This document shows positions 2,124 through 31,740 of a DNA stretch of 64,000 bases, one piece after another. The notes under the pieces are model-generated. The model was given only the letters and a program-made list of their open reading frames with translations. It searched no databases and was not told where the DNA came from. Where the stretch lies: positions 124,001 to 188,000 of the forward strand of contig NZ_MWQY01000004.1 in assembly GCF_002087085.1 (NCBI RefSeq), in the 5' to 3' direction. The stretch's first letter is position 1. Every line of letters begins with the position of its first letter. The translations under genes and the position numbers were made by a program.

Positions 2124-4298
2124 ATGATCACCGATTTTCTTACCCAGGACGAACGAGAAAAAGGAGTCCGGCTGCTTCTCTGGCACGCCCTCTTCAACGG
2201 GCTGGGTTACGGTTTTCTTGCAGAGACGATAATTTATCTGCTGGCCCTGCAGTTCAATCCCTCCAACACCCAGCTGGGTTTTATCTCGTCGGCTATTCAT
2301 ATTGCGGGACTCGTACTGCTTTTCGTCCCCCGGCTGACCAACGGCATGAACCTGCGAAAACTCTTTTTCTCCGCCTGGATGTTCCGCGGCGCGGTGAGCT
2401 CCTTTTACGTACTGCTGCTCTTTACCCGGGGGCAGACGGCGGTGGTCCTTATTCTTGGCATCTATGCCCTCTTCTGTATCTCCCGTATTGTCGGGGCCTC
2501 CATGGCCGAGCCGGTGCAGCAGATGGTGGCTTCCACGGAAACCCGGGGGCGCTTTATCGCCCAGATGTTCATCAGCAACCAGTCCGCCCGGCTGGTCAGC
2601 CAGCTCATCAGCTACCTCTTGACCTCCATCGCAATCATGAGCGAATTGAACAGTCTGCTTGTTCTGATAGGCCTTGGAGTAGTAACCAATACGATCTCGG
2701 CCCTTTACCTGCGCAGGATTCCCTACCGGGAAAAGAGCCAGTATCAGAAAGGGAGCAACCTCTACCGGGTACTCCTTCGGACGGTAAAAAACCGGGAGCA
2801 GTTACTGGTGATCTTTATCCGCTGTTTCAGCCTTTCCGCCGCGGTGCTCATCGGTTTTACCACCCCCTTCCTGCGGGTAGTGGTGGGCTACGCCCAGAAC
2901 ATGGTGTTTCTTTATTCCCTGGTAGGTACGGCGGGAATGATTGTAAGCGGCCTGTTCCTGCGGCCCATCGTGGACAATGTGGGGTCCAAGCCCCTTTTGA
3001 TGGCCTCCTTTACCGGTCAAGCGGCCATCTTTATTATCTGGGCCGGCCTCAAGGATGCACCCCTGGGACTTTTTCTGGGCCTGGGATTTTTTACCACCTT
3101 TCTGCAGGCCTCGGTTTTTCAGCTGGTCGCCCGGCTCGTGTATAACGTGATCCCCGAGGAGGACAAGATCAGCTTCATGTCCCTGCTGAACTTTATCACC
3201 GCCGTATTCTCCTTCCTGGCCGGTATTGCAGGAGGTCTCCTCATCGACCTGGCGGCAAAAATCAGCCTTCCCTTCGGCTCCGACTACAGTCTCACCTTTA
3301 CAGCAGGCTCAATATACTGCGCCATAGCCTTCCTGCTGGTATTCAGCCTGCGGGACCAGGGTAGCCTGGGTATGCGGGAAACCGCGAACATCATCTTCTC
3401 GCCCCGGAACTTCAAGACCTTCCTGGATATCTACACCTTCAACCTGACGGCCAATCCGGTAAAGCGGCAGAATATCCTTACCGCGCTGAACTTCTCTCCC
3501 ACACCTCAGGCGGAGCAGGAGCTGCGGCAGATCCTGAACAACCCGATTGCCCCGGAGAAGGACCAGATACTTATTTCCCTCTATACGAACCCCAGACCCC
3601 GGCTCCTGGGGCTCATAATCCGGGAAGCGGAGAACCCGGAATCCGCCCAGCGCTCCAGCGCCATCTTCGCCCTGGGGGCCTACCCGGGAGAAAAGAGCCG
3701 AAACGCCCTGCGCGGGCTCTATCAGTCGGAGGATCCCCGGGTATCCTGCGCCGCGGCCAAGTCCCTGGCCCGGATCGGAAACCCTGTTCATCCCGAAGAG
3801 CTTGAAGGTCGCCTGATCTCCGTCGACCTTCCCACCCGGGCGATGCAGGACCTGATGGTTGCCCTTTCAGTGGCGGGGGAACATGAGCGTTACCTCCGCT
3901 CCCTCTTTCAGCTCTGTCCGGCCTACCGGGGCGATTACCATCTGCAGAGCATCCTGGCCCTCGCCGCAGCCCTGGAGGATTATTCCCCCCGTCTCGACCT
4001 TATCTATTCCCGGGAGAACAACAGAAGCGGCGGCGGGCTGTCCATCATCATCGAAGAGACCCGCCCCTTCAAACCCTTTTTCGATGACCTCCGGACCATT
4101 CAGGAATACTATCGCAACGGTCGGCATGAAGAGCTCCGGGACTGGTGCTGCAGGGTCGTTTCCGACTACACCCTGGACGAGCATCCGGTGGCCCTCTCGA
4201 TGAAATCCGACTCGGGCCATCCCTCTTCTTCGCTGAGTCTTGGGCGCCTGTATTTCACCTTTCAGTTGATGAATCTTCTTCGTCGTCCCGGGAAGTAG
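2124..4298 (+). CDS. MFS-type transporter with C-terminal HEAT-repeat domain
   Basis: About 12 hydrophobic helices in the first ~410 aa, then HEAT-like RSSAIFALG and VSCAAAKSLARIG. Confidence 0.75.
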   Translation: MITDFLTQDEREKGVRLLLWHALFNGLGYGFLAETIIYLLALQFNPSNTQLGFISSAIHIAGLVLLFVPRLTNGMNLRKLFFSAWMFRGAVSSFYVLLLFTRGQTAVVLILGIYALFCISRIVGASMAEPVQQMVASTETRGRFIAQMFISNQSARLVSQLISYLLTSIAIMSELNSLLVLIGLGVVTNTISALYLRRIPYREKSQYQKGSNLYRVLLRTVKNREQLLVIFIRCFSLSAAVLIGFTTPFLRVVVGYAQNMVFLYSLVGTAGMIVSGLFLRPIVDNVGSKPLLMASFTGQAAIFIIWAGLKDAPLGLFLGLGFFTTFLQASVFQLVARLVYNVIPEEDKISFMSLLNFITAVFSFLAGIAGGLLIDLAAKISLPFGSDYSLTFTAGSIYCAIAFLLVFSLRDQGSLGMRETANIIFSPRNFKTFLDIYTFNLTANPVKRQNILTALNFSPTPQAEQELRQILNNPIAPEKDQILISLYTNPRPRLLGLIIREAENPESAQRSSAIFALGAYPGEKSRNALRGLYQSEDPRVSCAAAKSLARIGNPVHPEELEGRLISVDLPTRAMQDLMVALSVAGEHERYLRSLFQLCPAYRGDYHLQSILALAAALEDYSPRLDLIYSRENNRSGGGLSIIIEETRPFKPFFDDLRTIQEYYRNGRHEELRDWCCRVVSDYTLDEHPVALSMKSDSGHPSSSLSLGRLYFTFQLMNLLRRPGK

Positions 4299-4354
4299 TT
4301 TTTCCCTCTGATATATTGCTTGCCTCAAGGGGCCGGCCTTGGTACAATCCGGTC

Positions 4355-6202
4355 ATGAAAAGTCGGGTCAGGCCAGCCTACTACCTTGTTCTTGTTGTGT
4401 ACGCACTTATAATCGGTGGACTTCTGTATCGGGAATTCGGCCAGGCCAGACCTGTCAGCTATTCTCTGGGAGAAATAAGCATATCCGCCCGTCAGACCGC
4501 AGGAGTCCCGGGAAACATTCTTCCTGGACAGGGTGCAGGGTTCCGCTCCCTTACCCTGCGCTACCGCAGCTTTCAACTCTCCATCCCCGAAACGGGCCTT
4601 GCCGTTGAAGTCGATGAGGAGGGCACGGAAATTCCTGCCGCCGTGGCTGACATTGACCGTTCAAGCAGCGAGATTTCAATACGCCTGGTTTCCGGGATTG
4701 AACTCCGGATACGGGAGAACGAAGAGGAAAACAACAGTTACATCCTGAGCCTCGATTTTACAGCCGCCGATGCGGAGAAGCTGCGGGGCATTCGACTCCC
4801 CTGGAGAGGTTCGGAACCGCAGTTTCACAGCGGGCTGCCCATACTCATTGCCTCACCCCCCGGAACATCGGGAGGTACGGTACTGCTGCCTGCTTCGGCC
4901 CGGGTGAATGCGGAGTTCCTCTCCATTCCCCGGAGTGATTCCCTCCAGGAGATCCTGCTCTTCAACGCCCCCGAAGAGGGTTCCCTGATTGAAAGCTGGT
5001 TCCGAATACGGGGAGGTCTCGCCTCGAGAGAAGAAGCCGACCGTGCCCTGAAGGAGTTTTACAACCTCGCCTACAGAGGCTGGGAACGGGACCGCTGGAT
5101 TCCCGGGGCAGGGAGCTGGGAATACGTGGCGGACGCTCCGCCGGAGAGCAGAACTGCCACGGCACTCCTCATGGAATCCCTCTCCAGAGGCAGCTACTTC
5201 TCAACCAGGGAACGCCTTGCCGCGGCCAGTCCCCGGCTCATCGACCATACCAGCGCCCTCTTTCTCGGGTCCGTCGTATCTCCCTTCGAACAGTTCGGTT
5301 CATCCATGGAAGATTTCATGGCGGAAGTCCGGCAGGCGCTGAACAACGGAGACAGTTCGATATTTGACAAAGTCGACAGTCTGAACAGAATTATCCAGGC
5401 GGGAATCGGTTCCGGGGAAGGCATACAGGATGCCCTCTCCCAGCTGGCGGAAACAACGGTCCTTGCCGAACCATCCAGCCCGGCGGAACTGCTCAGGGCC
5501 ATCAGGGCCGCTGAGTTTCTGCTTGAATGGGAAGGGCCGGAACACTCGGGAATCCGCTATCTGATCCGGGAAGAGCTTCTGCCCGGACTCTGTACAACGA
5601 ATTACGGCTACGGCATACACTTCAACGGGACCTCCGACGCCCTGACCGGCGTTCTGGCGGGAAGACTGATGGCCGCAGGCAGTGACGACTTTTCCGCAGC
5701 CCTGGGATACACCCTTCTTGCATCCTTTACCGCCTCCGCCGGGGAGTTCTCCCGGACCCCCGCCGGGATTATACGCAGGGAGTTTTATTACCAGAACTCA
5801 CAGAAACTTCTGGAACCGGAAGCCCTGCCGCGGCTTCAACCCCTGGCGGGAGAACTGCCCTATCAGCCGCGGGCAATCGAACTGGGAACAGACGAAGGAT
5901 GGATGTGGACCACCGCCGCGGATGTGCGTTACCAGGACGGCGGTACAACGAGCATCTTGAGTTTTCGCTTTCCCCAGGGCGGAATACACCACTTTGCCCT
6001 CTACGGGGTAGAACCCTTCGACCAGATCCAGATGCACGGAATTCCCTGGAAGAGCGACCCGGAATTCCAGCGCTACAGCGACGGCTGGGTGTACAATCCC
6101 CGTACGAAAACCCTCTTCTTCAAGATACGGCACCGCTCCGAGAGGCAGGAGATACGGATCCTCCGAAATACCCCTGAAGCGGCTCCTCCGGCTAGGCCTT
6201 GA
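4355..6202 (+). CDS. Membrane-anchored exported hypothetical protein (~615 aa)
   Basis: ATG 4355 (MKSRVRP) follows TTGCCT-N17-TACAAT. One N-terminal TM segment; no recognisable domain. Confidence 0.7.
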   Translation: MKSRVRPAYYLVLVVYALIIGGLLYREFGQARPVSYSLGEISISARQTAGVPGNILPGQGAGFRSLTLRYRSFQLSIPETGLAVEVDEEGTEIPAAVADIDRSSSEISIRLVSGIELRIRENEEENNSYILSLDFTAADAEKLRGIRLPWRGSEPQFHSGLPILIASPPGTSGGTVLLPASARVNAEFLSIPRSDSLQEILLFNAPEEGSLIESWFRIRGGLASREEADRALKEFYNLAYRGWERDRWIPGAGSWEYVADAPPESRTATALLMESLSRGSYFSTRERLAAASPRLIDHTSALFLGSVVSPFEQFGSSMEDFMAEVRQALNNGDSSIFDKVDSLNRIIQAGIGSGEGIQDALSQLAETTVLAEPSSPAELLRAIRAAEFLLEWEGPEHSGIRYLIREELLPGLCTTNYGYGIHFNGTSDALTGVLAGRLMAAGSDDFSAALGYTLLASFTASAGEFSRTPAGIIRREFYYQNSQKLLEPEALPRLQPLAGELPYQPRAIELGTDEGWMWTTAADVRYQDGGTTSILSFRFPQGGIHHFALYGVEPFDQIQMHGIPWKSDPEFQRYSDGWVYNPRTKTLFFKIRHRSERQEIRILRNTPEAAPPARP

Positions 6203-9200
6203 TCCGCTTTAGTACACCCCCGGCAAAGGTGAAACCGCCTCCGAAGGCTGTAAGTCCGTAGTACTCTTCCCGGCGGGAACTATCCTCCAGGATCCTTTCA
6301 ATACAGACCGGGATTGTCGATGACGAGATATTTCCGATTCCATCGATAATGCTGTAAACCTTCTCCGGTTTTGCCCTGAGCTTCTGTCGTACAGCATCAA
6401 TTATCCGCTGGTTTGCCTGGTGGGGAACTACAAGATCGAGCTCATCGGGTCCGATTCCCGCCTCCCTGCAGGCGTCTTTAAGGATGTCCGCCATGGCGGT
6501 AACCGCCTTGCGAAAGACCTCCGGTCCTTCCATGAAAACCGGGTCCTTCAGGTCTGCAGGGATCCTCAGAAGTGATCCGTCTTCCCCACTGGCGGAGAGG
6601 ACCGGCCGCTTTATCTCCAGAACGCCCTTTTCCGACAGCTCATTTCCGCCGACTATCATGGTCGCCGTTGCACCGTCACCGAAAACCGGGGCTGTGGAGG
6701 GATCAGATGTATCCATACGGTCAGAAAGCACATCGGCGGTAACAAGCAGTACTCTGTGGCCGGGTTTCTGTGCCAGGTAGTCGTGGGCTATCTGCAGGCC
6801 GTAGACGTATCCGGAACAGGCGGCGTTTATGTCATAAGCCGGACAGGTACAGTCGGCATTGTACCTGCGGTTCAGTTCATACTGCACCATGGTGGCCAGG
6901 GCCGGAGTGTTCATGACGGGGGTCACGGTGGAACAGATCAGAAGGTCCACCTCCTCGATTCCCATACCCAGATCATCCAGCAGCCGGCTTGCGGCGTCCA
7001 CCGACAGGCTCAGGGCATTCTCCCCCTCCCCGATCCAGTGGCGCTCCCTGATTCCGGTGCGTCGCACTATGTCGTCGGGACTCCAGGTGGGACAGAGCCG
7101 GGAGATTTCTTCGTTGCTCACAACCCGGGAACCCAGGACCCCCCGGACCGCCGTAATGGCCGCCGTTCCCTCCCGGGAAGGTCCGGAAAAGCCGGAAGCT
7201 CCGGTCTTGAGAGACGTGATAACCGGGATTCCAGGTTCCTCCCGGGTAATAGGTTTGATCCTCACTGCTCCCTTTTCCAGGCGGATCTTTGCAATCCCGT
7301 CACCCACATTGGCGGAGTCCCCCTCGGCAACATCGAGGGAGCTCACGACACCGGAAACAGGGCTGGACAGGGTTACCATGGCCTTATCGGCTTCGAGTTC
7401 CGCAATCTCCTGACCTTCGCTGATGGAATCCCCCTCCGCCACGAGCCATTCGATAACCGTTACAACCTCATCGGAAGGACTCGATCCGACGGCTTCCAGG
7501 GTATAGAGTTCTCCGCCGGCCTCTTCCGCCTTGCGCCAGCTGATACTGCCCTCCAGCAGTTCAACGGCGGTCTCCAGTACCCGCTTGTACGACGGCAGGA
7601 CCTCAAGCTGGTTGGCAAAATTGCAGGGAACGTAGGTATCTCCCCGGGTTACCCTCCGCAGCCGGATCGGACGACGGCTTGCCTCCGCCAGGGTACTCAG
7701 AATCTCCGACCCCATACCGGCGGTGTGGGTGTCTTCATGAACGACAATCAGCCGGCCGGTCTTTTCCGCCGAGGAGATGAGCATATCCCTGTCCCAGGGG
7801 GCCAGAGTACGCAGATCGATAACCTCCGCTTCCGCTCCGGCCTCCGCCAAGGCTGCCGCCGCCTTCATGCAGTGGACCACGGTGTTTCCCCATCCCAAGA
7901 GGGTGATGTCCCTGCCCTCCTTGAGGAGCCGGGCTTTACCGGGAGAGGCCAGCAGCCTGGCTGCCGGTCTGGTCGTGGCAAAATCCCTGCTGTTCAGCAG
8001 GTTCTTGGGATAGAAAAAGAGGGTCGGTCTCCCGGATTCGAAGGCGGAGTTCAGAAGGGCCGCTGCATCATCCGCCCGGGAGGGCATAAAGACATCCACC
8101 CCCGGGGTATGGGCGGCTATTCCGTCCATGGACTGGGCGTGAAAGGGTCCCAGGCCCGGCTTGTAGCCCCCGCAGGATATCATCACGATGACCGGGGCCT
8201 GCCAGCCGCCGTCGGTACGCCAATACATGCTTCCCAGCTCGGAGATTATCTGATTAAAGGCTATGGGCAGAAAATCGGCGAACTGCAGAAAGGCCACGGG
8301 ACGCCTTCCCGCCAGGGCCTCGCCGCCGGCAATCCCCACAATGGAGGCCTCAGCCAGGGGAGAATTGCAGACCCGGCCGGGGAAGAGGTCCGTAAGACCC
8401 CGGGTCACCCCGAAGACGTCCCCCTTGGGATCTTCGATGTCCTCTCCGAACAGATAGACCCGTTCGTCGGCCTTCATGCGGGCAGTCAGGACATCCCGCA
8501 GGGTTTCAATCATGGTCCTGGGCTCACCTTCGCTCTCCGACGGCTGACTCTCGTCGACCTCGAGCAGGTGCCGGGGATAGGGTTTTACCGCATCGTGGAC
8601 GGCCTCGGGTTCGGGACCCAGCTGACTCTCCCGGGCGAGGTTCTCCAGCTCCGTTCTGCGGGAGGCTTCAGCCTCCTCCAGTTCCTTCTCGTCCATACCG
8701 GATGAAAGAAGCACATCCCGCAGCTTCCGCACCGGATCCCCGGTCAGCCGTGCCCGGGAAATCTCCTCTTCGCTGCGATAGACCCGCTGGTCGTCGGCGT
8801 TGGTGTGGTTCGAAAGCCGTTCGACCTCCATAATCAGGATTGCCGGTCTCCTGGATTCCCGCATTTCCGCGACGGTCTCCCCAAAAACCTCGTCCGCCGT
8901 CAGCGGGTCCCGGCCGTCGAAACGGCGGATCGGTATACCGTAAAACTCTTCGGCCGGTCCGTCGGGAAGATTGTAGAAGGTCTTTCCCCGTGTGCGGGTG
9001 GATATGGCAAATCCGTTATCCTGAACAAGAAAAAGGACCGGAAGGGTCTCCCGAACCGCCTGGGCCACAGCTTCAAGAACCTCTCCCTGCTGGCTCATGC
9101 CGTCTCCCAGGGAACAAAGGACCACAGGAGCTCCGGGCCTGTCCTTTACGGCCCGGGCGACACCCGCCGCCTGGAGTCCCGAGTTTCCCACGGGTCCCAC

Positions 9201-9545
9201 CAGACTGAGGATATTCAGTGAGGGATCACTCATGTGGGCGTTCATCTGCCTGCCCCGGGAGTGTGAAGCGTCCTTGTTGAAGAGAGAATGAAAGAACATT
9301 ACCGGGGCCATTCCCCGGGCGAGCATCATCGCTTTGTCACGGTAGTGGCAGTGGAGCCAGTCCTCCGGCTTCAGATACTGAGCCAGGGCCGCCCCGGCTT
9401 CGTGCCCTCCCCCGGAGACGTGAAAAAAGGCCTCTCCCCGGTGAGTGTAGCTCTCTTCTATCCGGTCAATTTCCCGGGAAGAGAACATATTCATATAGAG
9501 TTTGAACAGATACTCCTGCCGCTGGGCGCTTATATCGGTCTTCAT
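6192..9545 (-). CDS. Fusion: 2-oxoacid dehydrogenase E1alpha + E1beta + lipoyl domain + beta-ketoacyl-ACP synthase III (FabH-like)
   Basis: ThDP motif GDG...QDN and HTNADD; E1beta GEDI..GDVFGVT and EVIDLRTL; lipoyl EADKA; KASIII AACSG, PHQAN and GNISS. GAGGAG RBS favours the start at 9545. Confidence 0.93.
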   Translation of the reverse strand: MKTDISAQRQEYLFKLYMNMFSSREIDRIEESYTHRGEAFFHVSGGGHEAGAALAQYLKPEDWLHCHYRDKAMMLARGMAPVMFFHSLFNKDASHSRGRQMNAHMSDPSLNILSLVGPVGNSGLQAAGVARAVKDRPGAPVVLCSLGDGMSQQGEVLEAVAQAVRETLPVLFLVQDNGFAISTRTRGKTFYNLPDGPAEEFYGIPIRRFDGRDPLTADEVFGETVAEMRESRRPAILIMEVERLSNHTNADDQRVYRSEEEISRARLTGDPVRKLRDVLLSSGMDEKELEEAEASRRTELENLARESQLGPEPEAVHDAVKPYPRHLLEVDESQPSESEGEPRTMIETLRDVLTARMKADERVYLFGEDIEDPKGDVFGVTRGLTDLFPGRVCNSPLAEASIVGIAGGEALAGRRPVAFLQFADFLPIAFNQIISELGSMYWRTDGGWQAPVIVMISCGGYKPGLGPFHAQSMDGIAAHTPGVDVFMPSRADDAAALLNSAFESGRPTLFFYPKNLLNSRDFATTRPAARLLASPGKARLLKEGRDITLLGWGNTVVHCMKAAAALAEAGAEAEVIDLRTLAPWDRDMLISSAEKTGRLIVVHEDTHTAGMGSEILSTLAEASRRPIRLRRVTRGDTYVPCNFANQLEVLPSYKRVLETAVELLEGSISWRKAEEAGGELYTLEAVGSSPSDEVVTVIEWLVAEGDSISEGQEIAELEADKAMVTLSSPVSGVVSSLDVAEGDSANVGDGIAKIRLEKGAVRIKPITREEPGIPVITSLKTGASGFSGPSREGTAAITAVRGVLGSRVVSNEEISRLCPTWSPDDIVRRTGIRERHWIGEGENALSLSVDAASRLLDDLGMGIEEVDLLICSTVTPVMNTPALATMVQYELNRRYNADCTCPAYDINAACSGYVYGLQIAHDYLAQKPGHRVLLVTADVLSDRMDTSDPSTAPVFGDGATATMIVGGNELSEKGVLEIKRPVLSASGEDGSLLRIPADLKDPVFMEGPEVFRKAVTAMADILKDACREAGIGPDELDLVVPHQANQRIIDAVRQKLRAKPEKVYSIIDGIGNISSSTIPVCIERILEDSSRREEYYGLTAFGGGFTFAGGVLKRIKA

Positions 9546-9699
9546 AGTTAAAAACTCCTCCATTCTCATGTCGGCCGCGGACCGACTGAAGAATTCGGAA
9601 CAGGTTACCAGATCTTTAGATTAATGAAAACACTCCCGGTACGGCCCTTCCCGAAGACCAAACTTGACCTGCTCCGCCGGCCCGGCCTATCATGGAGCC

Positions 9700-11667
9700 A
9701 TGAAAAGAACCCTCTCCGAATACGGTTACCTCCGCGCTGCGGCGGCTGTTCCCCTGGTAAAACCTGGAAATGTAGATTTCAACTGTACAAAAACCCGGAA
9801 TCTGATGGAGGAGGCAGCCCGGGCGGACGTCTCCGTAACGGTCTTTCCCGAGCTCGGAATCACCGCTTACACCTGTGCCGACCTGTTTCAGCAGGATCGT
9901 CTGCTGCATACTGCGGAAGAGGGAGTCAGCGGCCTTATAAACCTGACAAAGTCCCTGAGCGGTGTTTTTGTTCTCGGGGTGCCGGTAAAACGGGACGGGA
10001 GGCTTTTCAACTGCGCCCTGGTAATCGGCGGAGGCAGGCTCCACGGCGTCGTACCCAAAACCATCATTCCCACCTATCGGGAGTTTTATGAGACCCGCTG
10101 GTTTGCAGGCGGCGGTCGTATAGGCGGTCAGGTAGAATACGCCGGACATCGAAGCCCCATGGGCACGGACCTGATCTTCTCTTTCGAGGCCGACGGAGCA
10201 CGGAACCTTAAAGCAAGCTTCGGCGTGGAAATCTGCGAGGACCTCTGGGCACCCGTTCCGCCCAGCTCAGGCCTCTGCAGTGCCGGCGCCCAGATCATCC
10301 TGAATCCCTCCGCCAGCAATGAGCTCGTCGGCAAGGCATCCTACCGTCACGGACTCATTACCCAGCAGTCCGCCCGCTGTCTTTCCGCCTATGTTTACGC
10401 TTCCTCGGGGGTGGGGGAATCCACCACGGATACGGTCTTTGGCGGTCATGCCCTTATTGCAGAAAACGGGGCCATCATTGCCGAGGGCGAACGCTTTAAA
10501 CGGGAAGGGCAGCTCCTCTATTCCGATATCGACCTCGATTTTCTTGACCACGAACGGATCAATTCAAGCACCTTCGCCCAGGGAGCCGACCTGGCAGAAC
10601 GGGAGTACCGACAAATAAACCTGGAACTGAGCACCGCCTCCCCGGAAATCACCAGCCTTGTCCGCACACCGGTACGAAACCCCTTCGTACCGGCGGTCCG
10701 GGAAGATCTTGAGGCCCGCTGCCGCGAGATCTTCGCCATTCAGAGCGCAGGTCTTGCGGGAAGGCTTGCGCATATAGGCTGCACGAGCGTTGTCCTGGGG
10801 CTTTCGGGGGGGCTGGATTCCACCCTGGCACTTCTGGTTACCGTGGAGGCCTTCAGGGAGCTGGGGCTCGATCCTTCGGGGATCCGCACCTTTACCCTTC
10901 CGGGCTTCGGCACAAGTTCCCGTACCCGGACAAATGTGGAGAAACTGACCAGAGCCCTGGGAGTACCCCTGGAAACAGTGGATATAGCCGAAAGCTGTCT
11001 GCTGCAGCTCAAGGACCTTGAGCATTCGGGAAAACCCGAGGACACGGCCTATGAGAATGTCCAGGCCCGGCAGCGGACAATGTTTCTGATGAACAAAGCC
11101 AACATGCTGGGAGCCATCGTGATCGGGACCGGCGATCTTTCGGAACTGGCTCTGGGCTGGTGCACCTACAATGGGGACCATATGTCCATGTACTCGGTAA
11201 ACAGCGGGGTGCCCAAAACCCTGGTCCGGTTTCTGGTTACCTACGCGGCGGACAGCTGGGCCGGAGACGAGGCCGCCGCAGTACTCCACGATATTGTTGA
11301 CACACCCATCTCTCCCGAACTGCTTCCCCCCGACGCGGAAGGAGAGATCTCCCAGAAAACCGAGGATACCATCGGACCCTACGTATTGCACGATTTCTTT
11401 CTGTACCACGCAATACGCTGCGGCGCCTCCCCGAAGAAGGTACTCCTGCTGGCGGATAAGGCCTTTTCCGGAGAATACGAAACCGGCACAATCCTCACCT
11501 GGCTGCGCAGCTTTTACCGCCGCTTCTTTTCCCAGCAGTTCAAGCGATCCTGTCTTCCCGACGGTCCCAAGGTGGGAACCATCTCCCTCTCTCCCCGGGG
11601 TGACTGGCGCATGCCCTCGGATGCTGATGCGGGAATCTGGCTGGACGAACTGGACGCTCTGTCATAA
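9700..11667 (+). CDS. nadE: Glutamine-dependent NAD+ synthetase
   Basis: Nitrilase domain (FPEL, YREFYE, ICEDLW) plus synthetase (SGGLDS, ENVQAR, QFKRSCLPDGPKV). Confidence 0.96.
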   Translation: MKRTLSEYGYLRAAAAVPLVKPGNVDFNCTKTRNLMEEAARADVSVTVFPELGITAYTCADLFQQDRLLHTAEEGVSGLINLTKSLSGVFVLGVPVKRDGRLFNCALVIGGGRLHGVVPKTIIPTYREFYETRWFAGGGRIGGQVEYAGHRSPMGTDLIFSFEADGARNLKASFGVEICEDLWAPVPPSSGLCSAGAQIILNPSASNELVGKASYRHGLITQQSARCLSAYVYASSGVGESTTDTVFGGHALIAENGAIIAEGERFKREGQLLYSDIDLDFLDHERINSSTFAQGADLAEREYRQINLELSTASPEITSLVRTPVRNPFVPAVREDLEARCREIFAIQSAGLAGRLAHIGCTSVVLGLSGGLDSTLALLVTVEAFRELGLDPSGIRTFTLPGFGTSSRTRTNVEKLTRALGVPLETVDIAESCLLQLKDLEHSGKPEDTAYENVQARQRTMFLMNKANMLGAIVIGTGDLSELALGWCTYNGDHMSMYSVNSGVPKTLVRFLVTYAADSWAGDEAAAVLHDIVDTPISPELLPPDAEGEISQKTEDTIGPYVLHDFFLYHAIRCGASPKKVLLLADKAFSGEYETGTILTWLRSFYRRFFSQQFKRSCLPDGPKVGTISLSPRGDWRMPSDADAGIWLDELDALS

Positions 11668-26469: not shown

Positions 26470-27522
26470 ATGGATACATCCCCGGCTGAAAATAACTTCC
26501 GCACATATATCGACGAACATGAACTGGCCCTTTCGGATCAGATCATCACGCTTCTCTGGCGGGACCACCCTGAGTATGACAGGATCTTTGATGAGAAAGG
26601 CAAGGGGAAGTGCGCCCAGGATATCCGCTATCATCTGAAGTATCTTGCCGCCGCCGTGGACGCCGAATCTCCCGCCCTCTTTCTGCGTTATCTGGAGTGG
26701 GTAAAGAGCCTCTTCGCCTCCCTGAACATTCCCCGGGACACCTTTTTAGAGACCCTGAAGACAATGAAGGAGGTTCTCGGAGATCAGAGCAGCATCGCCC
26801 TGAACTACCTTGACGAAGGACTGAAGGCCTACCCGGAGCTCCCGGACAGGCATGACTCCTTTATTACCCCGGAAAATCCCCTCTCCGGGGTGGCCGGAAA
26901 CTACATCCAGGCCCTGCTCAAACGGGACAGGGAAGGCGCCATGAAGATCATCATGCAGGAGATGGAAGCGGGACGGGACATCCGGGAGATGTACGAGTAC
27001 GTATTCCAGGTAAGCCAGCGGGAGATCGGCCGTCTCTGGCAGACCGGAAGCGTCAGCGTGGCCCAGGAACACTACTGCACCGGAGCGACCCAGCTTATCA
27101 TGAGCCGCCTCTATCCCTATGTATTCAACCACGAGAAAAACGGACTCACTTTTATCGGAACCAGCGTGGGGGATGAGCTTCATGAACTTGGAATCCGCAT
27201 GGTCAGCGACTTCTTTGAACTCGACGGCTGGGATACGATTTTTCTGGGCGCCAACACACCTGCGAAGGACATACTGCGGTGCATCATGGATGAGCAGGCA
27301 AAGGTCATCGGAATTTCCGTGACCATAACCTACCACCTTCACAAAGTCCGGGAGATTATAGATTCCATCGCCGAAAACCCTGAGCTAAAGGGGGTCAGGA
27401 TCCTTGTGGGGGGCTACCCCTTCAATGAGGACCGTGAATTGTGGCGCAGGATAGGAGCTCACGGCTACGGGACTGATGCCAGAGACGCGATACGCACCGC
27501 ACGCCGGCTTGTGGGGATATAG
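26470..27522 (+). CDS. Globin-like domain + cobalamin-binding domain sensor (photocobilin-like)
   Basis: N-terminal KGKCAQDIRYHLKYL; W190-x9-E200H201; ELH238ELG; IGIS and LVGG Rossmann B12 motifs. Confidence 0.85.
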   Translation: MDTSPAENNFRTYIDEHELALSDQIITLLWRDHPEYDRIFDEKGKGKCAQDIRYHLKYLAAAVDAESPALFLRYLEWVKSLFASLNIPRDTFLETLKTMKEVLGDQSSIALNYLDEGLKAYPELPDRHDSFITPENPLSGVAGNYIQALLKRDREGAMKIIMQEMEAGRDIREMYEYVFQVSQREIGRLWQTGSVSVAQEHYCTGATQLIMSRLYPYVFNHEKNGLTFIGTSVGDELHELGIRMVSDFFELDGWDTIFLGANTPAKDILRCIMDEQAKVIGISVTITYHLHKVREIIDSIAENPELKGVRILVGGYPFNEDRELWRRIGAHGYGTDARDAIRTARRLVGI

Positions 27523-27524
27523 GT

Positions 27525-28733
27525 ATGAAACAGAAGATCTTCCACGGTTTCGCGGTTCTGTGTGATCAGGACGGCCGTATAGAGCTCATCCTGCGGAATG
27601 ATTTGAAGAACATACTGAATCCCCGGCCCGGGGCACCCCTGAGCACCCTGATCGACGAAGCGGACCTTCCCGATTATTACACCTTTTTATACCGGCTAAA
27701 GAATGAAACCGTGCTCTATGACTGGCAGCTGAAAATCGATTCTGCCACGGAGCCGGGGGAGCTCTACTTTACGGGAGGAAGCTTTGACGGGCGGATATTC
27801 ATTATCGCCTCCTCCCTGACAACGGAAGCAGCGGAGTTCATTGACGAACTGGGACGCATCAACAATGAGCAGGCCGACATGCTCCGACGGGCAATAAAAA
27901 AAGAGAACCGCGATGATCAGGAAGTTTTCCGCGACTTTGCCAGGGTGAATAATGAGCTGACCAATCTTCAGCGGGAACTGCACAAAAAAAACCATGAGCT
28001 GACAAGAACCCTGCAGGAGAGAGACAGGTTTATCGGCATGGCCGCCCACGACCTGCGCAGTCCCTTAAGCGGAATCTCCGGGCTCTGCGGCCTGCTGCTG
28101 GACGGCCGGATGGGAGAACTCAGCACGGACCAGCAGGAGATTATCCAGACCATATGCGAAAGCTCAGAGTACATGGTCCAGATGGTGAACGACATGCTGG
28201 ACCTGGCGGCCATCGAGTCCGGTACCCTGCAGCTCAACATCAGGAAAACGGACCTGGTGAAGATAATCCGGGACAGCTTCAGCATTAACAGGCAGATCGC
28301 CGAGCAGAAGGAGATCTGCCTCACGATAAAGACGGAGCAGGATTCGATCCCGCTGGAAATCGACGGAGTAAAAATCAGGCAGGTGGCGGACAACCTGATT
28401 TCCAACGCCATCAAGTTCTCCCATCCCGGGACCGCCGTACAGGTCGGGGTTATGCAGACCGGGGATCACGCCGAGGTCAGCGTCCGGGACCAGGGACAGG
28501 GGATTCCCGCAGAAGAGCTGCCGAAACTCTTTACTCCCTACTCACGAGTCAAGGTCTCCTCCACCGCCGGAGAAAAAAGCACCGGATTAGGCCTGGCAAT
28601 ATCCCAGCGTATAATCCGGGGACACCGGGGAACACTGAAGGTTGAGAGCGAGGTCGGGAAAGGCTCGATCTTTCGCTTCAGCCTGCCGCTTAAACCGGCG
28701 GATGGGGAAAATACCCCTCAGGCCTCTTCATAA
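27525..28733 (+). CDS. Cytoplasmic sensor histidine kinase
   Basis: AHDLRSPL, NLISNAIKFS, DQGQGI, GLGLAI; no TM segments; starts 2 bp after the upstream stop. Confidence 0.93.
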   Translation: MKQKIFHGFAVLCDQDGRIELILRNDLKNILNPRPGAPLSTLIDEADLPDYYTFLYRLKNETVLYDWQLKIDSATEPGELYFTGGSFDGRIFIIASSLTTEAAEFIDELGRINNEQADMLRRAIKKENRDDQEVFRDFARVNNELTNLQRELHKKNHELTRTLQERDRFIGMAAHDLRSPLSGISGLCGLLLDGRMGELSTDQQEIIQTICESSEYMVQMVNDMLDLAAIESGTLQLNIRKTDLVKIIRDSFSINRQIAEQKEICLTIKTEQDSIPLEIDGVKIRQVADNLISNAIKFSHPGTAVQVGVMQTGDHAEVSVRDQGQGIPAEELPKLFTPYSRVKVSSTAGEKSTGLGLAISQRIIRGHRGTLKVESEVGKGSIFRFSLPLKPADGENTPQASS

Positions 28734-30054: not shown

Positions 30055-30374
30055 ATTCAGAAATCCCCGGAAGCAGGAAACCCGGAGCGCCCAGGAAGAC
30101 CCGCCGATACCGGCCCATTGGAGAGCTGCGCCGTTTCAAACCCGCCGGGATTCCCGGATCCGAACTGAAGCGGCAGATCCTCCACATAGATGAGTTCGAA
30201 GCCATGCGGCTCTGTGACCTGGAGAATCTGAGCCAGATCGAAGCCGCCGAAACCATGGAGGTGAGCCGCGGTACCGTACAAAGGCTGCTTCTGTCCGGAC
30301 GGGCAAAGGTGGCGGGGGCAATTCTCCGGGGAGAGATGATCATACTCGATGAAGGAGAAGAGAATGACGAATGA
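30048..30374 (+). CDS. DUF134 family HTH protein (putative regulator)
   Basis: FKPAGIP, DEFEAMRLCDLENLSQIEAAETMEVSRGTVQRLL. Confidence 0.9.
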   Translation: MHNSEIPGSRKPGAPRKTRRYRPIGELRRFKPAGIPGSELKRQILHIDEFEAMRLCDLENLSQIEAAETMEVSRGTVQRLLLSGRAKVAGAILRGEMIILDEGEENDE

Positions 30375-31740
30375 ACACTTTGAACTGCTTGTAATCGGCG
30401 GGGGGCCCGCCGCGATAACCATGGCCAAGGAGCTGGGGTCCCGGGTCCGGATGGGGGTAATCCGGCGGGAGGCCCACTCCATGATCTACTGCGCCATGCC
30501 CTACGCCGTGGAAGGGCTGCTGCAGCCGGAAAAGACCCTGAAGGCTGATACACTGGTTACCGAGACCGGGGCGCAACTGATCCGGGACACCGTTACAGAC
30601 GTCGATTTTGAAAAAAAGAGCGTCACCACCCAGGCGGGAAACAGCTATACCTGGGATAAGCTGGTAATCGCCACAGGCGCGGAACCGGTACTGCCACCCC
30701 TGAAGGGGCATGAGCTGGAGGGCGTAAGCACCTTCAAGAAGGAAGAGGATATGTTCAAGGTCGCTTCCATGGTGGAAGAGGGCATGGAAAACGCTGTGGT
30801 TATCGGGGCGGGAGCCATCGGCGTGGAACTCGCCCAGGCCCTGGCAGCCCGCGGGGTAGATACCGTTCTGGCGGATATGGCGGATTCGGTTCTTCCCAAC
30901 CTCGCCGATCCGGAAATGACCGCCCCCGCAGCGGAGGAGCTGCAGAGGCTGGGGATCCGTCTCAAGCTGGGACGCAAAGCCCTGGAACTGAGGGCCCGTG
31001 AGGATAAGCCTGCCCTGATCGGCGGGGTTGTATTCGACGACGGCAGTATCGAGAAAGCCGACCTGGTCGTTTTTGCCGTCGGGATGCGCCCGGAGGTCTC
31101 CCTCTTCGAAGGCAGCGGCCTTGAAATAGCCCGGGACGGGATTATCGTGGACAGCCGAATGCGTACCAGCATCGAAGATGTCTACGCTGTCGGAGACTGT
31201 GTCTCCTTTACCAGCGCCATTACCGGTGAACCCGCCGGGGGAAAACTGGCGACCAACGCGGTTCCCATGGGTCGCATTCTGGCAGCCAACCTGAAGGGTG
31301 AGGACCGGGAGTATCCGGGCTTTATTAACGGTGCGGCAACCAAGGCGGGGGAACTCTTTATCGGCGGAACAGGCATGAAGGAAGAAGAGGCAAAAGGGCA
31401 TTTTCAGGTTCTATGCGGCTACTCCGAATTTACCACCACCTTTCCCATAATGCCGGGGGCAAAAAAGGCTCGCCTCAAGCTGCTGGCGGACCGTGAAAGC
31501 GGAAGGATCATCGGAGGCCAGATTGTGAGCGGACAGCCGGTTACCGACAAGGTCGACCAGATAAGCATGGCCATCCAGTTTGGCCTGAAGGTTGAGGATC
31601 TTCTGAATTTCAGCTATTCCAGTCAGCCCTGGCAGTCTTTTTATCCCGCCCATAACCTGCTGGTAAAGGCTGCGGAGGAACTTTCCATCCAGTTGAGCGG
31701 GCCGGACAGAAAACCAGCTGTCCTGGTCGAGGCTCGGTAA
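30364..31740 (+). CDS. FAD-dependent pyridine nucleotide-disulfide oxidoreductase (CoA-disulfide reductase / NADH oxidase type)
   Basis: IGGGPA, single-Cys YCAMPY, IATGA, GAGAIGVE, YAVGDC. Confidence 0.9.
   Translation: MTNEHFELLVIGGGPAAITMAKELGSRVRMGVIRREAHSMIYCAMPYAVEGLLQPEKTLKADTLVTETGAQLIRDTVTDVDFEKKSVTTQAGNSYTWDKLVIATGAEPVLPPLKGHELEGVSTFKKEEDMFKVASMVEEGMENAVVIGAGAIGVELAQALAARGVDTVLADMADSVLPNLADPEMTAPAAEELQRLGIRLKLGRKALELRAREDKPALIGGVVFDDGSIEKADLVVFAVGMRPEVSLFEGSGLEIARDGIIVDSRMRTSIEDVYAVGDCVSFTSAITGEPAGGKLATNAVPMGRILAANLKGEDREYPGFINGAATKAGELFIGGTGMKEEEAKGHFQVLCGYSEFTTTFPIMPGAKKARLKLLADRESGRIIGGQIVSGQPVTDKVDQISMAIQFGLKVEDLLNFSYSSQPWQSFYPAHNLLVKAAEELSIQLSGPDRKPAVLVEAR

Follow-up and report, generated by a model that had tools for sequence, protein, structure and literature searches.

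A single-chain E1–lipoyl–KASIII protein that probably starts chains directly from 2-oxoacids

The 64,000-nt stretch of DNA analysed here (the window) carries on its minus strand a long open frame for a four-domain protein, whose features are collected in Table 1; residues are numbered from the ATG at 9569. A sequence-only reading of this DNA had described a single uninterrupted ORF starting at 9545. No internal stop was found in the 1125 codons, and the start at 9545 is indeed the likelier one, because a Shine-Dalgarno-like GGAGGAG lies upstream of it and because the database copy, P0001, is 1117 aa long. Six Pfam domains, all above their cut-offs, were recovered: E1_dh (residues 27–321), Transket_pyr (352–526), Transketolase_C (544–656), Biotin_lipoyl (702–762), ACP_syn_III (912–975) and ACP_syn_III_C (1034–1121), in agreement with the earlier description of E1alpha, E1beta, a lipoyl domain and KASIII on one chain. 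The AF2 model of the whole protein had a pLDDT of 85.4 and a pTM of 0.67. A check for assembly artefact showed the fusion to be real, since contigs from two other studies spanned positions 5900–9900 whole (run X3, 54,615 nt, 41 substitutions, 0 indels; run X5, 4,248 nt, 39 substitutions, 0 indels); in run X2, from a third study, the same interval was covered by two overlapping contigs.

Table 1. Features of the locus, with positions in the window.
Feature	Position	Strand	Basis or remark
Longest open frame, four-domain protein	6192..9569	(-)	1125 aa + TAG stop 6192-6194; ORF listing
Shine-Dalgarno-like GGAGGAG	9555-9561	(-)	9 nt ahead of ATG at 9545; from sequence
Likely start ATG, Met9	9543-9545	(-)	gives 1117-aa product
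E1alpha module, residues 9-345	8535..9545	(-)	Pfam E1_dh 2e-36
ThDP motif G155-D156-G157 ... N185	9015-9107	(-)	GDG codons 9099-9107; Asn185 codon 9015-9017
E1alpha His255 codon	8805-8807	(-)	within H-T-N-A-D-D..Y-R
E1beta module, residues 346-680	7530..8534	(-)	Pfam Transket_pyr + Transketolase_C
E1beta Glu407 codon	8349-8351	(-)	
E1beta His477 codon	8139-8141	(-)	
Single lipoyl domain, residues 688-770	7260..7508	(-)	Pfam Biotin_lipoyl 3.1e-17
Lys729 codon	7383-7385	(-)	within E-A-D-K-A
Lipoyl-KASIII linker, residues 771-802	7164..7259	(-)	alignments + AF2 model
Linker motif K772-P-x-T-R-E-E-P-G-x-P-V-I784	7218-7256	(-)	conserved
KASIII/FabH domain, residues 803-1125	6195..7163	(-)	PRK09352; alignment to E. 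coli FabH
Asp833 codon	7071-7073	(-)	E. coli Trp32 position
Thr888 codon	6906-6908	(-)	E. coli Phe87 position
Cys918 codon	6816-6818	(-)	triad
Pro957 codon	6699-6701	(-)	E. coli Arg151 position
His1050 codon	6420-6422	(-)	triad
Arg1055 codon	6405-6407	(-)	E. coli Arg249 position
Asn1080 codon	6330-6332	(-)	triad
Flavoprotein disulfide reductase relative	30349-31740		only one in window

The GDG...N sequence is the ThDP motif of E1 enzymes, whose catalysis is served by a His of the alpha part and a His and a Glu of the beta part. All of these are present, together with three Pfam domains (E1_dh, 126 bits vs a cut-off of 22; Transket_pyr, 83.8 vs 27; Transketolase_C, 108.3 vs 25.9), placing the N-terminal part with the heterotetramer-type E1s. 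Among solved structures E1alpha was closest to 1um9_A (4.4e-36) and human BCKDH alpha (2.5e-27), with both of which its motifs align, and E1beta to 1um9_B (1.1e-55; TM-score of the model 0.91).

The lipoyl domain scored 62.6 bits (Pfam cut-off 22.1) and bears its Lys in a turn of the D/T/S-K-A type, and the codon earlier proposed for its lipoyl lysine proved to be that of Lys729, which was invariant in alignment A1. The tether between E1beta and the lipoyl domain (W678 to G695) measured 14–17 residues in 120 close relatives. The linker that follows is variable in length after its conserved motif, in which E777, G780 and P782 were invariant in alignment A1 and looser across phyla; the AF2 model gave it a strand at 781–785 and a pLDDT below 50 at 792–800. 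Three BPL_LplA_LipB matches were found in the genome.

The C-terminal domain passed the NCBIfam model PRK09352 (256.2 bits vs a cut-off of 249) and failed the fabH model TIGR00747 (225.9 vs 292.1 bits), below whose cut-off the fused copies of 18 other genomes also fell. It was about 30% identical to the FabH of its own genome, and its model gave TM-scores of 0.90–0.93 against solved FabHs. The Cys-His-Asn triad, earlier read as intact, is present and was kept in 120/120 close relatives and in 62/62 multi-phylum fusions, as in the latter were Asn185, His255, Glu407, His477 and Lys729. Arg249 of FabH is an ACP-docking residue, and its position was Arg in 120/120 close relatives and 59/62 multi-phylum members. 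The basic residues of the funnel are named in general terms in PMC3734052 (in part).

In FabH the adenine of CoA is stacked between Trp32 and Arg151 and bonded to Thr28 (PMC4606726, in part). In this protein Thr28, Trp32 and Arg151 correspond to Thr, Asp and Pro. Trp was found at position 32 in 0/120 close relatives and 0/62 multi-phylum fusions, Arg at position 151 in 0/120 and 1/62, and Thr at position 28 in 38/120 and 5/62, whereas all three residues were kept in 22/22 stand-alone FabHs (20 from the same phylum, four of these from fusion-bearing genomes, plus that of the genome itself and that of E. coli); Trp and Arg also occupy positions 32 and 151 in the five top-ranking solved FabHs. 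Two FabH residues that touch the pantetheine arm, Arg36 and Asn247 (PMC4606726, in part), have their positions kept in the fused KASIII. This comparison shows that the fused KASIII does not hold CoA as FabH does, although use of a pantetheine thioester would still be compatible with it.

Profile searches agreed with the earlier statement that the protein has no E2 core and that neither E2 nor E3 lies nearby. Within the protein there was no match to an E2 core (2-oxoacid_dh, PF00198) or to E3_binding (PF02817) at E ≤ 0.01, so that it carries neither the E2 core nor the peripheral-subunit-binding domain that mark a 2-oxoacid dehydrogenase complex; no E2 gene was found in the 64-kb window, or conserved nearby in 68 loci, and no true E3 (lipoamide dehydrogenase) in the window. 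The one flavoprotein disulfide reductase relative there had its best scores, still below cut-off, with the models for CoA-disulfide reductase and NADH oxidase. Elsewhere the genome has three stand-alone E2 cores (contigs C79, C56 and C2) and two true lipoamide dehydrogenases above cut-off (contigs C79 and C2), so an E3 is available to act in trans, as had been predicted. Each of five other fusion-bearing genomes tested had at least one E2 core.

All six Pfam domains were present in every one of the best 120 database relatives (54–100% identity), and 35 of the 150 representatives listed (clusters at 50% identity) aligned over residues ~20–1120 in one stretch. The taxonomic range of the architecture, which the sequence-only reading had proposed to check, extends by record title over at least six phyla: an unbroken ORF of >1050 aa was found at 61/67 genome loci, the loci falling to Spirochaetes (20), Planctomycetota (16), Verrucomicrobia/Kiritimatiellales/Lentisphaeria (14), Pseudomonadota (12), Sumerlaeota (2), Actinomycetota (2) and an unclassified record (1). 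Occurrence was patchy: the 401 genomes sampled from the phylum gave eight intact copies and one genome whose copies are broken, and in Rhizobium there were three isolates. Ordinary FabH was present alongside the fusion in 17/19 carrier genomes checked (one of the two FabH-less carriers is a 1.8-Mb metagenome genome that comes without a completeness figure), indicating that the fusion is rarely the sole initiator and that its product may go elsewhere than into bulk fatty acids. In G345 (99% complete) the fusion was the only KASIII found, and it adjoins a FabD/FabG/FabZ/KS/ACP-like operon without FabH. No conserved neighbours were seen (the best neighbour cluster occurred in 7/68 loci), and no recurrent partners among 88 adjacent same-strand ORFs; as to a dedicated ACP next door, a PP-binding match was obtained for 1/88 adjacent ORFs (1.2e-06, locus L065).

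Other domains can stand at the place of the KASIII. A Pfam scan of 24 length variants found 12 E1–lipoyl proteins in which the lipoyl domain is followed by an E2 core; one of these, P0149, was 54% identical to the query over residues 22–784, and a literature description of single-chain E1alpha–E1beta–lipoyl–E2 core proteins was not found. P0148 has a thioesterase after the lipoyl domain, and in P0212 and P0182 an ACP, or ACP-KS...C-A, is added after the E2 core. No peripheral-subunit-binding domain was detected in the scanned variants at E ≤ 1e-5. The presence of an E2 core in cis at the same place argues for an acyl-accepting role of the C-terminal domain. P0127 extends E1–lipoyl–KASIII by a KR domain (3.7e-60) and, more weakly, by a PP-binding (ACP) match (3.6e-06, with no separately significant stretch), as would be required for a 3-oxoacyl-ACP product.

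The protein is almost certainly a functional multidomain enzyme and, having lost the CoA adenine contacts and joined decarboxylase, lipoyl domain and KASIII on one chain, it probably starts chains directly from 2-oxoacids. The best explanation, and in our judgement a probable one, is a self-contained 2-oxoacid : malonyl-ACP initiation enzyme, in which a self-loaded lipoyl arm would deliver its acyl group to the KASIII Cys for condensation with malonyl-ACP, with E3 acting in trans. To judge from family membership and kept residues, the fused E1alpha–E1beta would bind ThDP and decarboxylate the 2-oxoacid, and would then reductively acylate Lys729, held at the E1beta end by a short tether of fixed length; that the arm is acylated by the same protein is very likely. 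The acyl-dihydrolipoyl arm would enter KASIII where acyl-CoA normally inserts its pantetheine arm, and thioester exchange would move the acyl group onto Cys918, a new step whose direct course the comparative evidence makes reasonably probable. His1050 and Asn1080 would decarboxylate malonyl-ACP docked at the Arg1055 patch, yielding 3-oxoacyl-ACP, and a free E3 encoded elsewhere, genes for which are present, would reoxidise the arm with NAD+. The net reaction would be 2-oxoacid + malonyl-ACP + NAD+ -> 3-oxoacyl-ACP + 2 CO2 + NADH, without CoA, and in most carriers would amount to a second, primer-specific entry to type II fatty-acid synthesis beside ordinary FabH. That FabH takes the place of the E2 core and accepts acyl groups from the lipoyl arm free of CoA had been put forward in the sequence-only reading; comparative evidence of four independent kinds now supports it, namely the E2-core position, the lost adenine contacts, the kept condensing machinery and the extension of P0127.

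A primer bigger than acetyl is probable, and it may have a branched chain. Phe87 limits E. coli FabH to acetyl, and a Thr in the M. tuberculosis enzyme widens the pocket (PMC12625853 and PMC3734052, both in part). The Phe87 position was Thr/Ser in 120/120 close relatives and Thr/Ser/Cys/Ala in 62/62 multi-phylum members. Only two features point to a branched chain, namely the Thr/Ser at this position and the closeness of the E1 part to the branched-chain E1s of T. thermophilus and human, its best solved relatives; the NCBIfam E1 equivalogs all scored below cut-off (for example TIGR03181, 166 vs 411). The carriers include, by record title, Rhizobium, Devosia and Neisseriaceae, groups in which, to our knowledge, iso or anteiso fatty acids are not a known feature, and this was counted against a branched-chain substrate, which we propose only tentatively.

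The same chemistry could supply a secondary metabolite or a specialised lipid, or work with a dedicated carrier protein, rather than serve bulk membrane fatty acids. The frequency of ordinary FabH among carriers and the patchy distribution both favour such a product, as do the relatives of the E1–lipoyl scaffold that load PKS/NRPS lines (P0182, P0212), occasional lipid-modifying neighbours (a fatty-acid hydroxylase at L056, SDRs at L076 and L080, an acyltransferase at L085) and the weak PP-binding ORF at L065, which misses the 1e-06 cut. However, the loci shared no conserved adjoining biosynthetic cluster or dedicated ACP, and the only KASIII of G345 is the fusion, next to a single fab-like operon, so that we consider a specialised destination unlikely.

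A different reading keeps KASIII as an ordinary FabH: an E2 in trans would unload the lipoyl arm to free acyl-CoA, which KASIII would use, and the fusion would merely co-localise the two activities. E2 cores are encoded elsewhere in this genome and in the five other carriers, and the pantetheine-contacting positions are kept, but the adenine positions hold Trp in 0/182 and Arg in 1/182 fused domains, against 22/22 stand-alone FabHs; moreover, the protein has no peripheral-subunit-binding domain for E2 docking, an E2 gene is not a conserved neighbour, and sister proteins bear their E2 core in cis at the very place of the KASIII. Such a detour through acyl-CoA is accordingly quite improbable. 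Nor do we give much chance to a KASIII of purely acyltransferase function, in which the thiolase fold would substitute for E2 and carry the acyl group from the lipoyl arm via Cys918 to holo-ACP or another thiol with no condensation. FabH does have a weak acyl-CoA:ACP transacylase side activity, and the E2 cores and thioesterase of the sisters occupy the same place, but acyl transfer can do without the KASIII His and Asn, which malonyl decarboxylation requires, and both His1050 and Asn1080 are kept throughout the 62 and 120 relatives. A precedent for transfer exists in QncN/QncL/QncM, which moves a lipoyl-bound unit to ACP (PMC6335953, in part), yet the ketoreductase after KASIII in P0127 is sensible only with a 3-oxo product. 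An assembly artefact, chimera or decaying pseudogene, suggested by two broken copies in one sampled genome (G332) and a shortened ORF at locus L083, has next to no probability and is refuted by the stop-free open frame, by the whole, indel-free gene in independent contigs and by the same architecture, with invariant catalytic residues, in the best 120/120 relatives and across phyla.

The proposed direct loading of KASIII from a lipoyl arm can be set against known systems. In Bacillus, Staphylococcus and Micrococcus the branched-chain 2-oxoacid dehydrogenase complex supplies FabH with acyl-CoA primers (PMC5857589, in part). The fusion shares with that complex (E1alpha2beta2, E2, E3) and FabH the E1 family, the lipoyl arm, the condensing enzyme family and probably the flow from 2-oxoacid to fatty-acid primer, but has everything on one chain without E2 core or peripheral-subunit-binding domain and, with the adenine contacts gone from its KASIII, probably skips free acyl-CoA. 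From FabH/KASIII itself (E. coli 1hn9, S. aureus 1zow), with which it has in common the fold, the triad, the Arg249 position and membership of PRK09352, it departs in its TIGR00747 score, in the family-wide loss of the Thr28/Trp32/Arg151 contacts and in the change of Phe87 to Thr/Ser. QncN/QncL/QncM (and SclQ1-4) consist of a ThDP enzyme and a Pyr-TK_C–lipoyl–acyltransferase protein that delivers a C2 unit to ACP (PMC6335953, in part). There, too, an E1beta-like part is fused to a lipoyl and an acyl-acceptor domain, and a ThDP/lipoyl module loads a biosynthetic line instead of making acyl-CoA, but that system starts from a ketose phosphate and uses an E2-type acyltransferase as acceptor and an ACP as receiver, whereas in the fusion the acceptor is a condensing enzyme, with neither a PF00198 match after the lipoyl domain nor a conserved dedicated ACP beside the gene. 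The E1alpha–E1beta–lipoyl–E2 core proteins (P0149, P0179 and others) share the scaffold through the lipoyl end and likewise lack a peripheral-subunit-binding domain, but end in an E2 core (PF00198) where the fusion has KASIII. Lipoyl and catalytic domains are also re-partnered on one chain in the E1beta of Zymomonas mobilis, which has an N-terminal lipoyl domain, and in actinobacterial OdhA, an E2 core fused to E1o, but neither has a condensing enzyme joined to it. Literature searches found no biochemistry of an E1–lipoyl–FabH single chain, as had been stated of the four-domain architecture, and it seems that nobody has tested such a route.

On balance we favour, by a modest degree, the broader view in which a ketosynthase is given its acyl group by a lipoyl arm instead of by phosphopantetheine, which would make the protein a CoA-free 2-oxoacid : malonyl-ACP decarboxylating condensing enzyme from a modular family that swaps acceptors. 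If so, a single E1alpha–E1beta–lipoyl acyl generator would have been combined with exchangeable acceptors (KASIII, E2 core, thioesterase, or an E2–ACP heading PKS/NRPS lines). Oku and Kaneda reportedly proposed in 1988 that 2-oxoacids prime branched-chain fatty-acid synthesis without free acyl-CoA, and the fusion would give that proposal a physical form. Fatty-acid synthesis would then also have a third entry route, the other two being acyl-CoA-dependent FabH and malonyl-ACP decarboxylation.

The gene lies on the minus strand at 6192–9569 as a single open frame, 1125 codons long and closed by TAG, and residues are counted here from the ATG at 9569. The third ATG, at 9545, which the sequence-only reading had taken as the start, is likely correct, since GGAGGAG stands 9 nt upstream of it (9555–9561) and an identical database protein (P0001) has 1117 aa. 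The four-part fusion in one frame described in that reading was confirmed by the open frame together with the Pfam domains, and a codon check found every motif and codon it had named in place. All six Pfam domains, listed in the table, score above their own cut-offs; neither an E2 core (PF00198) nor an E3-binding domain is among the Pfam matches. Against NCBIfam, residues 802–1121 narrowly pass the FabH subfamily model PRK09352 (256.2, cut-off 249), the KASIII part scores below the cut-off of TIGR00747 (225.9 against 292.1), and the protein falls far below the cut-off of every E1 equivalog. In an AlphaFold2 model made from a 36-sequence alignment (mean pLDDT 85.4, pTM 0.67), the KASIII part matched solved FabHs with TM-scores of 0.90–0.93 and the E1beta part matched 1um9_B with 0.91. 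Promoter and terminator predictions in 5900–9900 showed no excess over shuffled sequence (2 versus 1.3 and 3 versus 3.5, respectively), and six short contigs (35–273 nt) of an RNA library (X17), a small share of words, fell on the gene, a weak hint of expression from a library that may contain DNA.

Domains of the fusion protein (residues from the ATG at 9569) and the two stretches considered in genome G345
Feature	Location	Detail	Basis
E1_dh	residues 27-321		Pfam
Transket_pyr	residues 352-526		Pfam
Transketolase_C	residues 544-656		Pfam
Biotin_lipoyl	residues 702-762		Pfam
ACP_syn_III	residues 912-975		Pfam
ACP_syn_III_C	residues 1034-1121		Pfam
G345 stretches	L108:9576-12941 and L109:5866-11327	low GC, 30-35% in the two stretches	

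An assembly artefact, which would have undone the sequence-only reading, is dismissed by public runs from other studies: single contigs of X3 (54,615 nt) and X5 (4,248 nt) cover 5900–9900 in one piece with 41 and 39 substitutions, respectively, and no indels, and in X2, from a third study, two overlapping contigs cover it. Among 8000 scored candidates, 1370 database proteins were related at E ≤ 0.001. The best 120 of these 1370 all contain the same six Pfam families (54–100% identity, 1096–1229 aa), and their named sources are mostly Spirochaetia, including Spirochaeta thermophila; of the 150 best matches listed from 1.84 billion 50%-identity representatives, 35 align in a single stretch from about 20 to 1120. 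A genome scan with an alignment of fusion relatives, using one genome per species, returned 602 stretches encoding a relative, of which 67 loci were kept. An unbroken ORF of >1050 aa was present in 61/67; in five of the other six a contig end truncates the frame, and the sixth (L083) has a shorter ORF. By record title the 67 loci belong to Spirochaetes (20), Planctomycetota (16), Verrucomicrobia, Kiritimatiellales and Lentisphaeria (14 together), Pseudomonadota (12, among them three Rhizobium isolates, Devosia, Cysteiniphilum litorale, Neisseriaceae and Methylococcaceae), Sumerlaeota (2) and Actinomycetota (2), with one unclassified. The family is thus large and spans at least six phyla, which answers the question of taxonomic range raised earlier.

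Within the window's own phylum the distribution is patchy, the E1beta–lipoyl–KASIII junction lying inside one long frame in 8/401 sampled genomes. One genome (G332) holds two junction copies interrupted by a frame change or TGA (C1:814392-815650 and 1147349-1148326), probably decaying. A full-length copy with 55% identity (P0099), filed under Marinobacter halodurans, sits on an 11.8-kb contig and reflects gene transfer, unless the contig is foreign to the assembly. Cultured carriers, by source name or record title, include Spirochaeta thermophila, Tautonia sp. JC769 and the three Rhizobium isolates. Relatives are currently annotated as ‘beta-ketoacyl-ACP synthase 3’ or ‘2-oxoisovalerate dehydrogenase E1 component’, and Atlas clusters of the fusion bear only the names of Pfam domains.

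Residues were counted in 120 close relatives and in 62 full-length members from several phyla. In all 62 of the latter the ThDP-site Asn185, His255, beta Glu407, beta His477 and lipoyl Lys729 were invariant, as were Cys918, His1050 and Asn1080 of KASIII; the His255 motif, H-T-N-A-D-D..Y-R, aligns with H-S-x-S/A-D-D..Y-R of the Thermus thermophilus and human branched-chain E1alpha. Arg occupies the position equivalent to E. coli Arg249 in 120/120 close and 59/62 multi-phylum members. According to passages of PMC4606726, FabH stacks the CoA adenine between Trp32 and Arg151, with a bond from Thr28, and holds the pantetheine arm by Arg36 and two Asn. Trp32 was absent from all 120 close relatives (Asp 108, Glu 9, Gly 3) and all 62 multi-phylum members, Arg151 was kept in 0/120 and 1/62, and Thr28 in 38/120 and 5/62, against 22/22 at each position in stand-alone FabHs (20 from the same phylum, including four of fusion-bearing genomes, the genome's own, and that of E. 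coli). The five best solved FabHs also have Trp and Arg at the first two positions. Judged by these residues, the fused KASIII thus appears to keep what is needed for acylation, ACP binding and condensation and to lose the contacts to the nucleotide end of CoA. Asn210 was dropped as a candidate lost contact, its position varying among the 22 stand-alone FabHs too.

The position of Phe87, which in the excerpts of PMC12625853 and PMC3734052 closes the E. coli FabH pocket around acetyl and as Thr opens that of the M. tuberculosis enzyme, is Thr or Ser in 120/120 close relatives and Phe in 0/62 multi-phylum members; the 22 stand-alone FabHs have Phe (16), Tyr (4) or Ser (2). The predicted enlargement of the KASIII pocket argues for a primer bigger than acetyl. 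By homology, the substrate class of the fused E1 may be that of the branched-chain E1s, to which it is nearest (1um9_A 4.4e-36, human BCKDH alpha 2.5e-27, human PDH alpha about 1e-22). Two solved M. tuberculosis FabH structures, PDB 2aj9 and 2ahb, are by title the mutants W42A/R161A and R46A/R161A. At an offset of +10 we take W42, R161 and R46 to be the Trp32, Arg151 and Arg36 positions, and the kinetics of such mutants could calibrate the effect of losing these residues.

The most likely reading, which we hold to be reasonably probable, is that a 2-oxoacid would pass by way of the protein's own lipoyl arm to the KASIII Cys and into 3-oxoacyl-ACP, with E3 acting in trans. E1 would decarboxylate the 2-oxoacid and acylate the lipoate on Lys729, the acyl-dihydrolipoyl arm would hand its acyl group to Cys918, malonyl-ACP would be decarboxylated by His1050 and Asn1080 to give 3-oxoacyl-ACP, and free E3 would reoxidise the arm. 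The basis for the first and last of these steps is what is established for 2-oxoacid dehydrogenases, and for the condensation what is established for FabH; what we infer anew is the transfer from lipoyl arm to Cys918. The earlier proposal, that KASIII in the place of the E2 core takes the acyl group directly from the arm without free acyl-CoA, appears supported by the comparative evidence.

Part of that evidence comes from 24 length variants taken from the representative search and scanned with Pfam. In 12/24 an E2 core (PF00198) directly follows the lipoyl domain; one of these, P0149, shares 54% identity with the fusion over residues 22–784, on a par with many KASIII-bearing proteins of other phyla. 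In P0148 a thioesterase domain takes the place of KASIII; P0212 has an E2 core followed by ACP, and P0182 (2895 aa) an E2 core followed by ACP-KS-methyltransferase-C-A, a PKS/NRPS line. The occurrence of KASIII, E2 core and thioesterase at the same place suggests that the C-terminal domain is interchangeable and accepts the acyl group carried by the lipoyl arm. P0127 (1942 aa) continues from E1-lipoyl-KASIII into KR and a weak PP-binding (ACP) match, an extension, with its probable ACP, that a 3-oxoacyl-ACP product would call for. In P0142 the E1-lipoyl scaffold is followed by a C-terminal stretch of ~240 aa without domain assignment; P0162, P0175 and P0176 seem to lack a third domain after E1-lipoyl, and P0216, P0235, P0245, P0251, P0259 and P0177, shorter matches that start inside domains, look like gene fragments. 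P0254 (1196 aa), in which CHASE2 and an adenylate/guanylate cyclase domain come after E1_dh, Transket_pyr and an incomplete Transketolase_C, represents an unusual sensor fusion or, alternatively, a chimeric gene call. No peripheral-subunit-binding domain was found in the 24 variants at E ≤ 1e-5, and no published description of such single-chain E1alpha-E1beta-lipoyl forms was found. In a tree of the E1 part of 66 chosen sequences, P0149, P0148 and P0142 group with the fusion's subgroup (SH-like support 0.896); the outgroup is non-monophyletic, and because support at inner nodes is low (0.67, 0.46) the tree was not used to infer in which direction domains were exchanged.

Linker lengths fit a lipoyl domain kept close to E1 with KASIII on a longer leash. 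Between Trp678, which is invariant and closes E1beta, and Gly695 at the lipoyl start there are 14–17 residues in 120/120 close relatives and 15–26 in the 62 multi-phylum members, and the stretch from lipoyl domain to KASIII measures 46–143 residues, with a conserved K-P-x-T-R-E-E-P-G-x-P-V-I that forms a short strand in the model, followed by a variable, low-confidence part.

The genomic surroundings offered no conserved partner. An NAD synthetase gene (9664–11667) diverges from the fusion gene, and a 685-aa ORF (4145–6202, plus strand) without a match in Pfam or NCBIfam converges with it, overlapping its stop by 11 nt; this ORF is one of two long overlapping ORFs at 2124–6202 on the plus strand, the other (724 aa) having MFS and HEAT matches. 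In ORF clustering over 68 loci the commonest neighbour cluster was present in only 7, and Pfam found no recurrent family in 88 adjacent same-strand ORFs and 40 further neighbours, among which lipid genes are scattered (two SDRs, a weak PP-binding ORF, a fatty-acid hydroxylase, a PlsC-type acyltransferase). Any further need of the protein must therefore be met by housekeeping functions. Besides a true PDH cluster that includes E3, the window's genome has two E1alphabeta+E2 clusters, one with a second true lipoamide dehydrogenase, as well as three BPL/LplA/LipB-family genes and one stand-alone FabH. Identity of the fused parts to the genome's other E1s (27–33% only) and to its stand-alone FabH (~30%) is low, which marks the fusion as an old lineage rather than a recent local one. 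Ruling out an E2 in trans by its absence fails, E2 cores being present in 5/5 other carriers tested.

Other genes came to light alongside. At three planctomycete loci (L044:5401-7836, L052:1444-3885, L059:181-1401) the gene immediately upstream, in the same orientation, encodes a large protein with a C-terminal AhpC/redoxin domain; the closeness of a thiol peroxidase to a dihydrolipoyl-producing enzyme may merit attention. A weak ACP_syn_III_C match 14 kb past the window end (G000:C34:202228-203364) belongs to a chalcone-synthase-like (type III PKS-like) ORF whose frame is 379 aa long. Within 26470–28733 a histidine kinase is immediately preceded by a protein with B12-binding, B12-binding_2 and, weakly, a phycobilisome-protein domain; the two could form a cobalamin-based sensor pair.

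One genome seems to link the fusion to ordinary fatty-acid synthesis. In G345 (leptospira-like, 2.2 Mb, 99% complete) the fusion is the only KASIII detected, and the single compact fab-like operon (FabD-, FabL-, FabG- and FabZ-like genes, KS, ACP, PPTase) contains no FabH. Co-occurrence with a stand-alone fabH, a check put forward with the sequence-only reading, held in 17/19 carriers and failed in 2/19. The ordinary FabH in those 17 speaks against the fusion as a general sole initiator; usually it is a second entry, presumably for a different primer.

Among known systems, branched-chain 2-oxoacid dehydrogenase feeds FabH, as a portion of PMC5857589 describes, and by the proposed mechanism the fusion would work likewise. 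Unlike a 2-oxoacid dehydrogenase complex it has neither E2 core nor binding domain, and unlike FabH proper it scores below the TIGR00747 cut-off and has no CoA adenine site. Of the systems described, the one closest in logic is QncN/QncL/QncM, where, in the extract of PMC6335953, an E1beta-like, lipoyl and E2-like fusion gives a ThDP-derived unit to ACP; the acceptor there is an acyltransferase, whereas in the fusion it is a ketosynthase. A search of main texts in the full-text literature, with subscription journals mostly outside its scope, found no paper on an E1-lipoyl-KASIII protein. The fusion is both widespread and different from the known systems that it resembles.

Textbook initiation of type II fatty-acid synthesis requires an acyl-CoA primer. 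The swappable C-terminal domain (KASIII, E2 or thioesterase) provides a natural control set, and the fusion is a compact tool, encoded by one gene, by which engineered hosts could be given branched or odd primers. If the proposed reading is true, a ketosynthase taking its acyl group directly from a lipoyl arm would newly pair two of the best-studied enzyme systems in acyl transfer, primer supply would be uncoupled from the CoA pool, and membrane-lipid composition would be tied straight to the 2-oxoacid, and hence amino-acid, pool.
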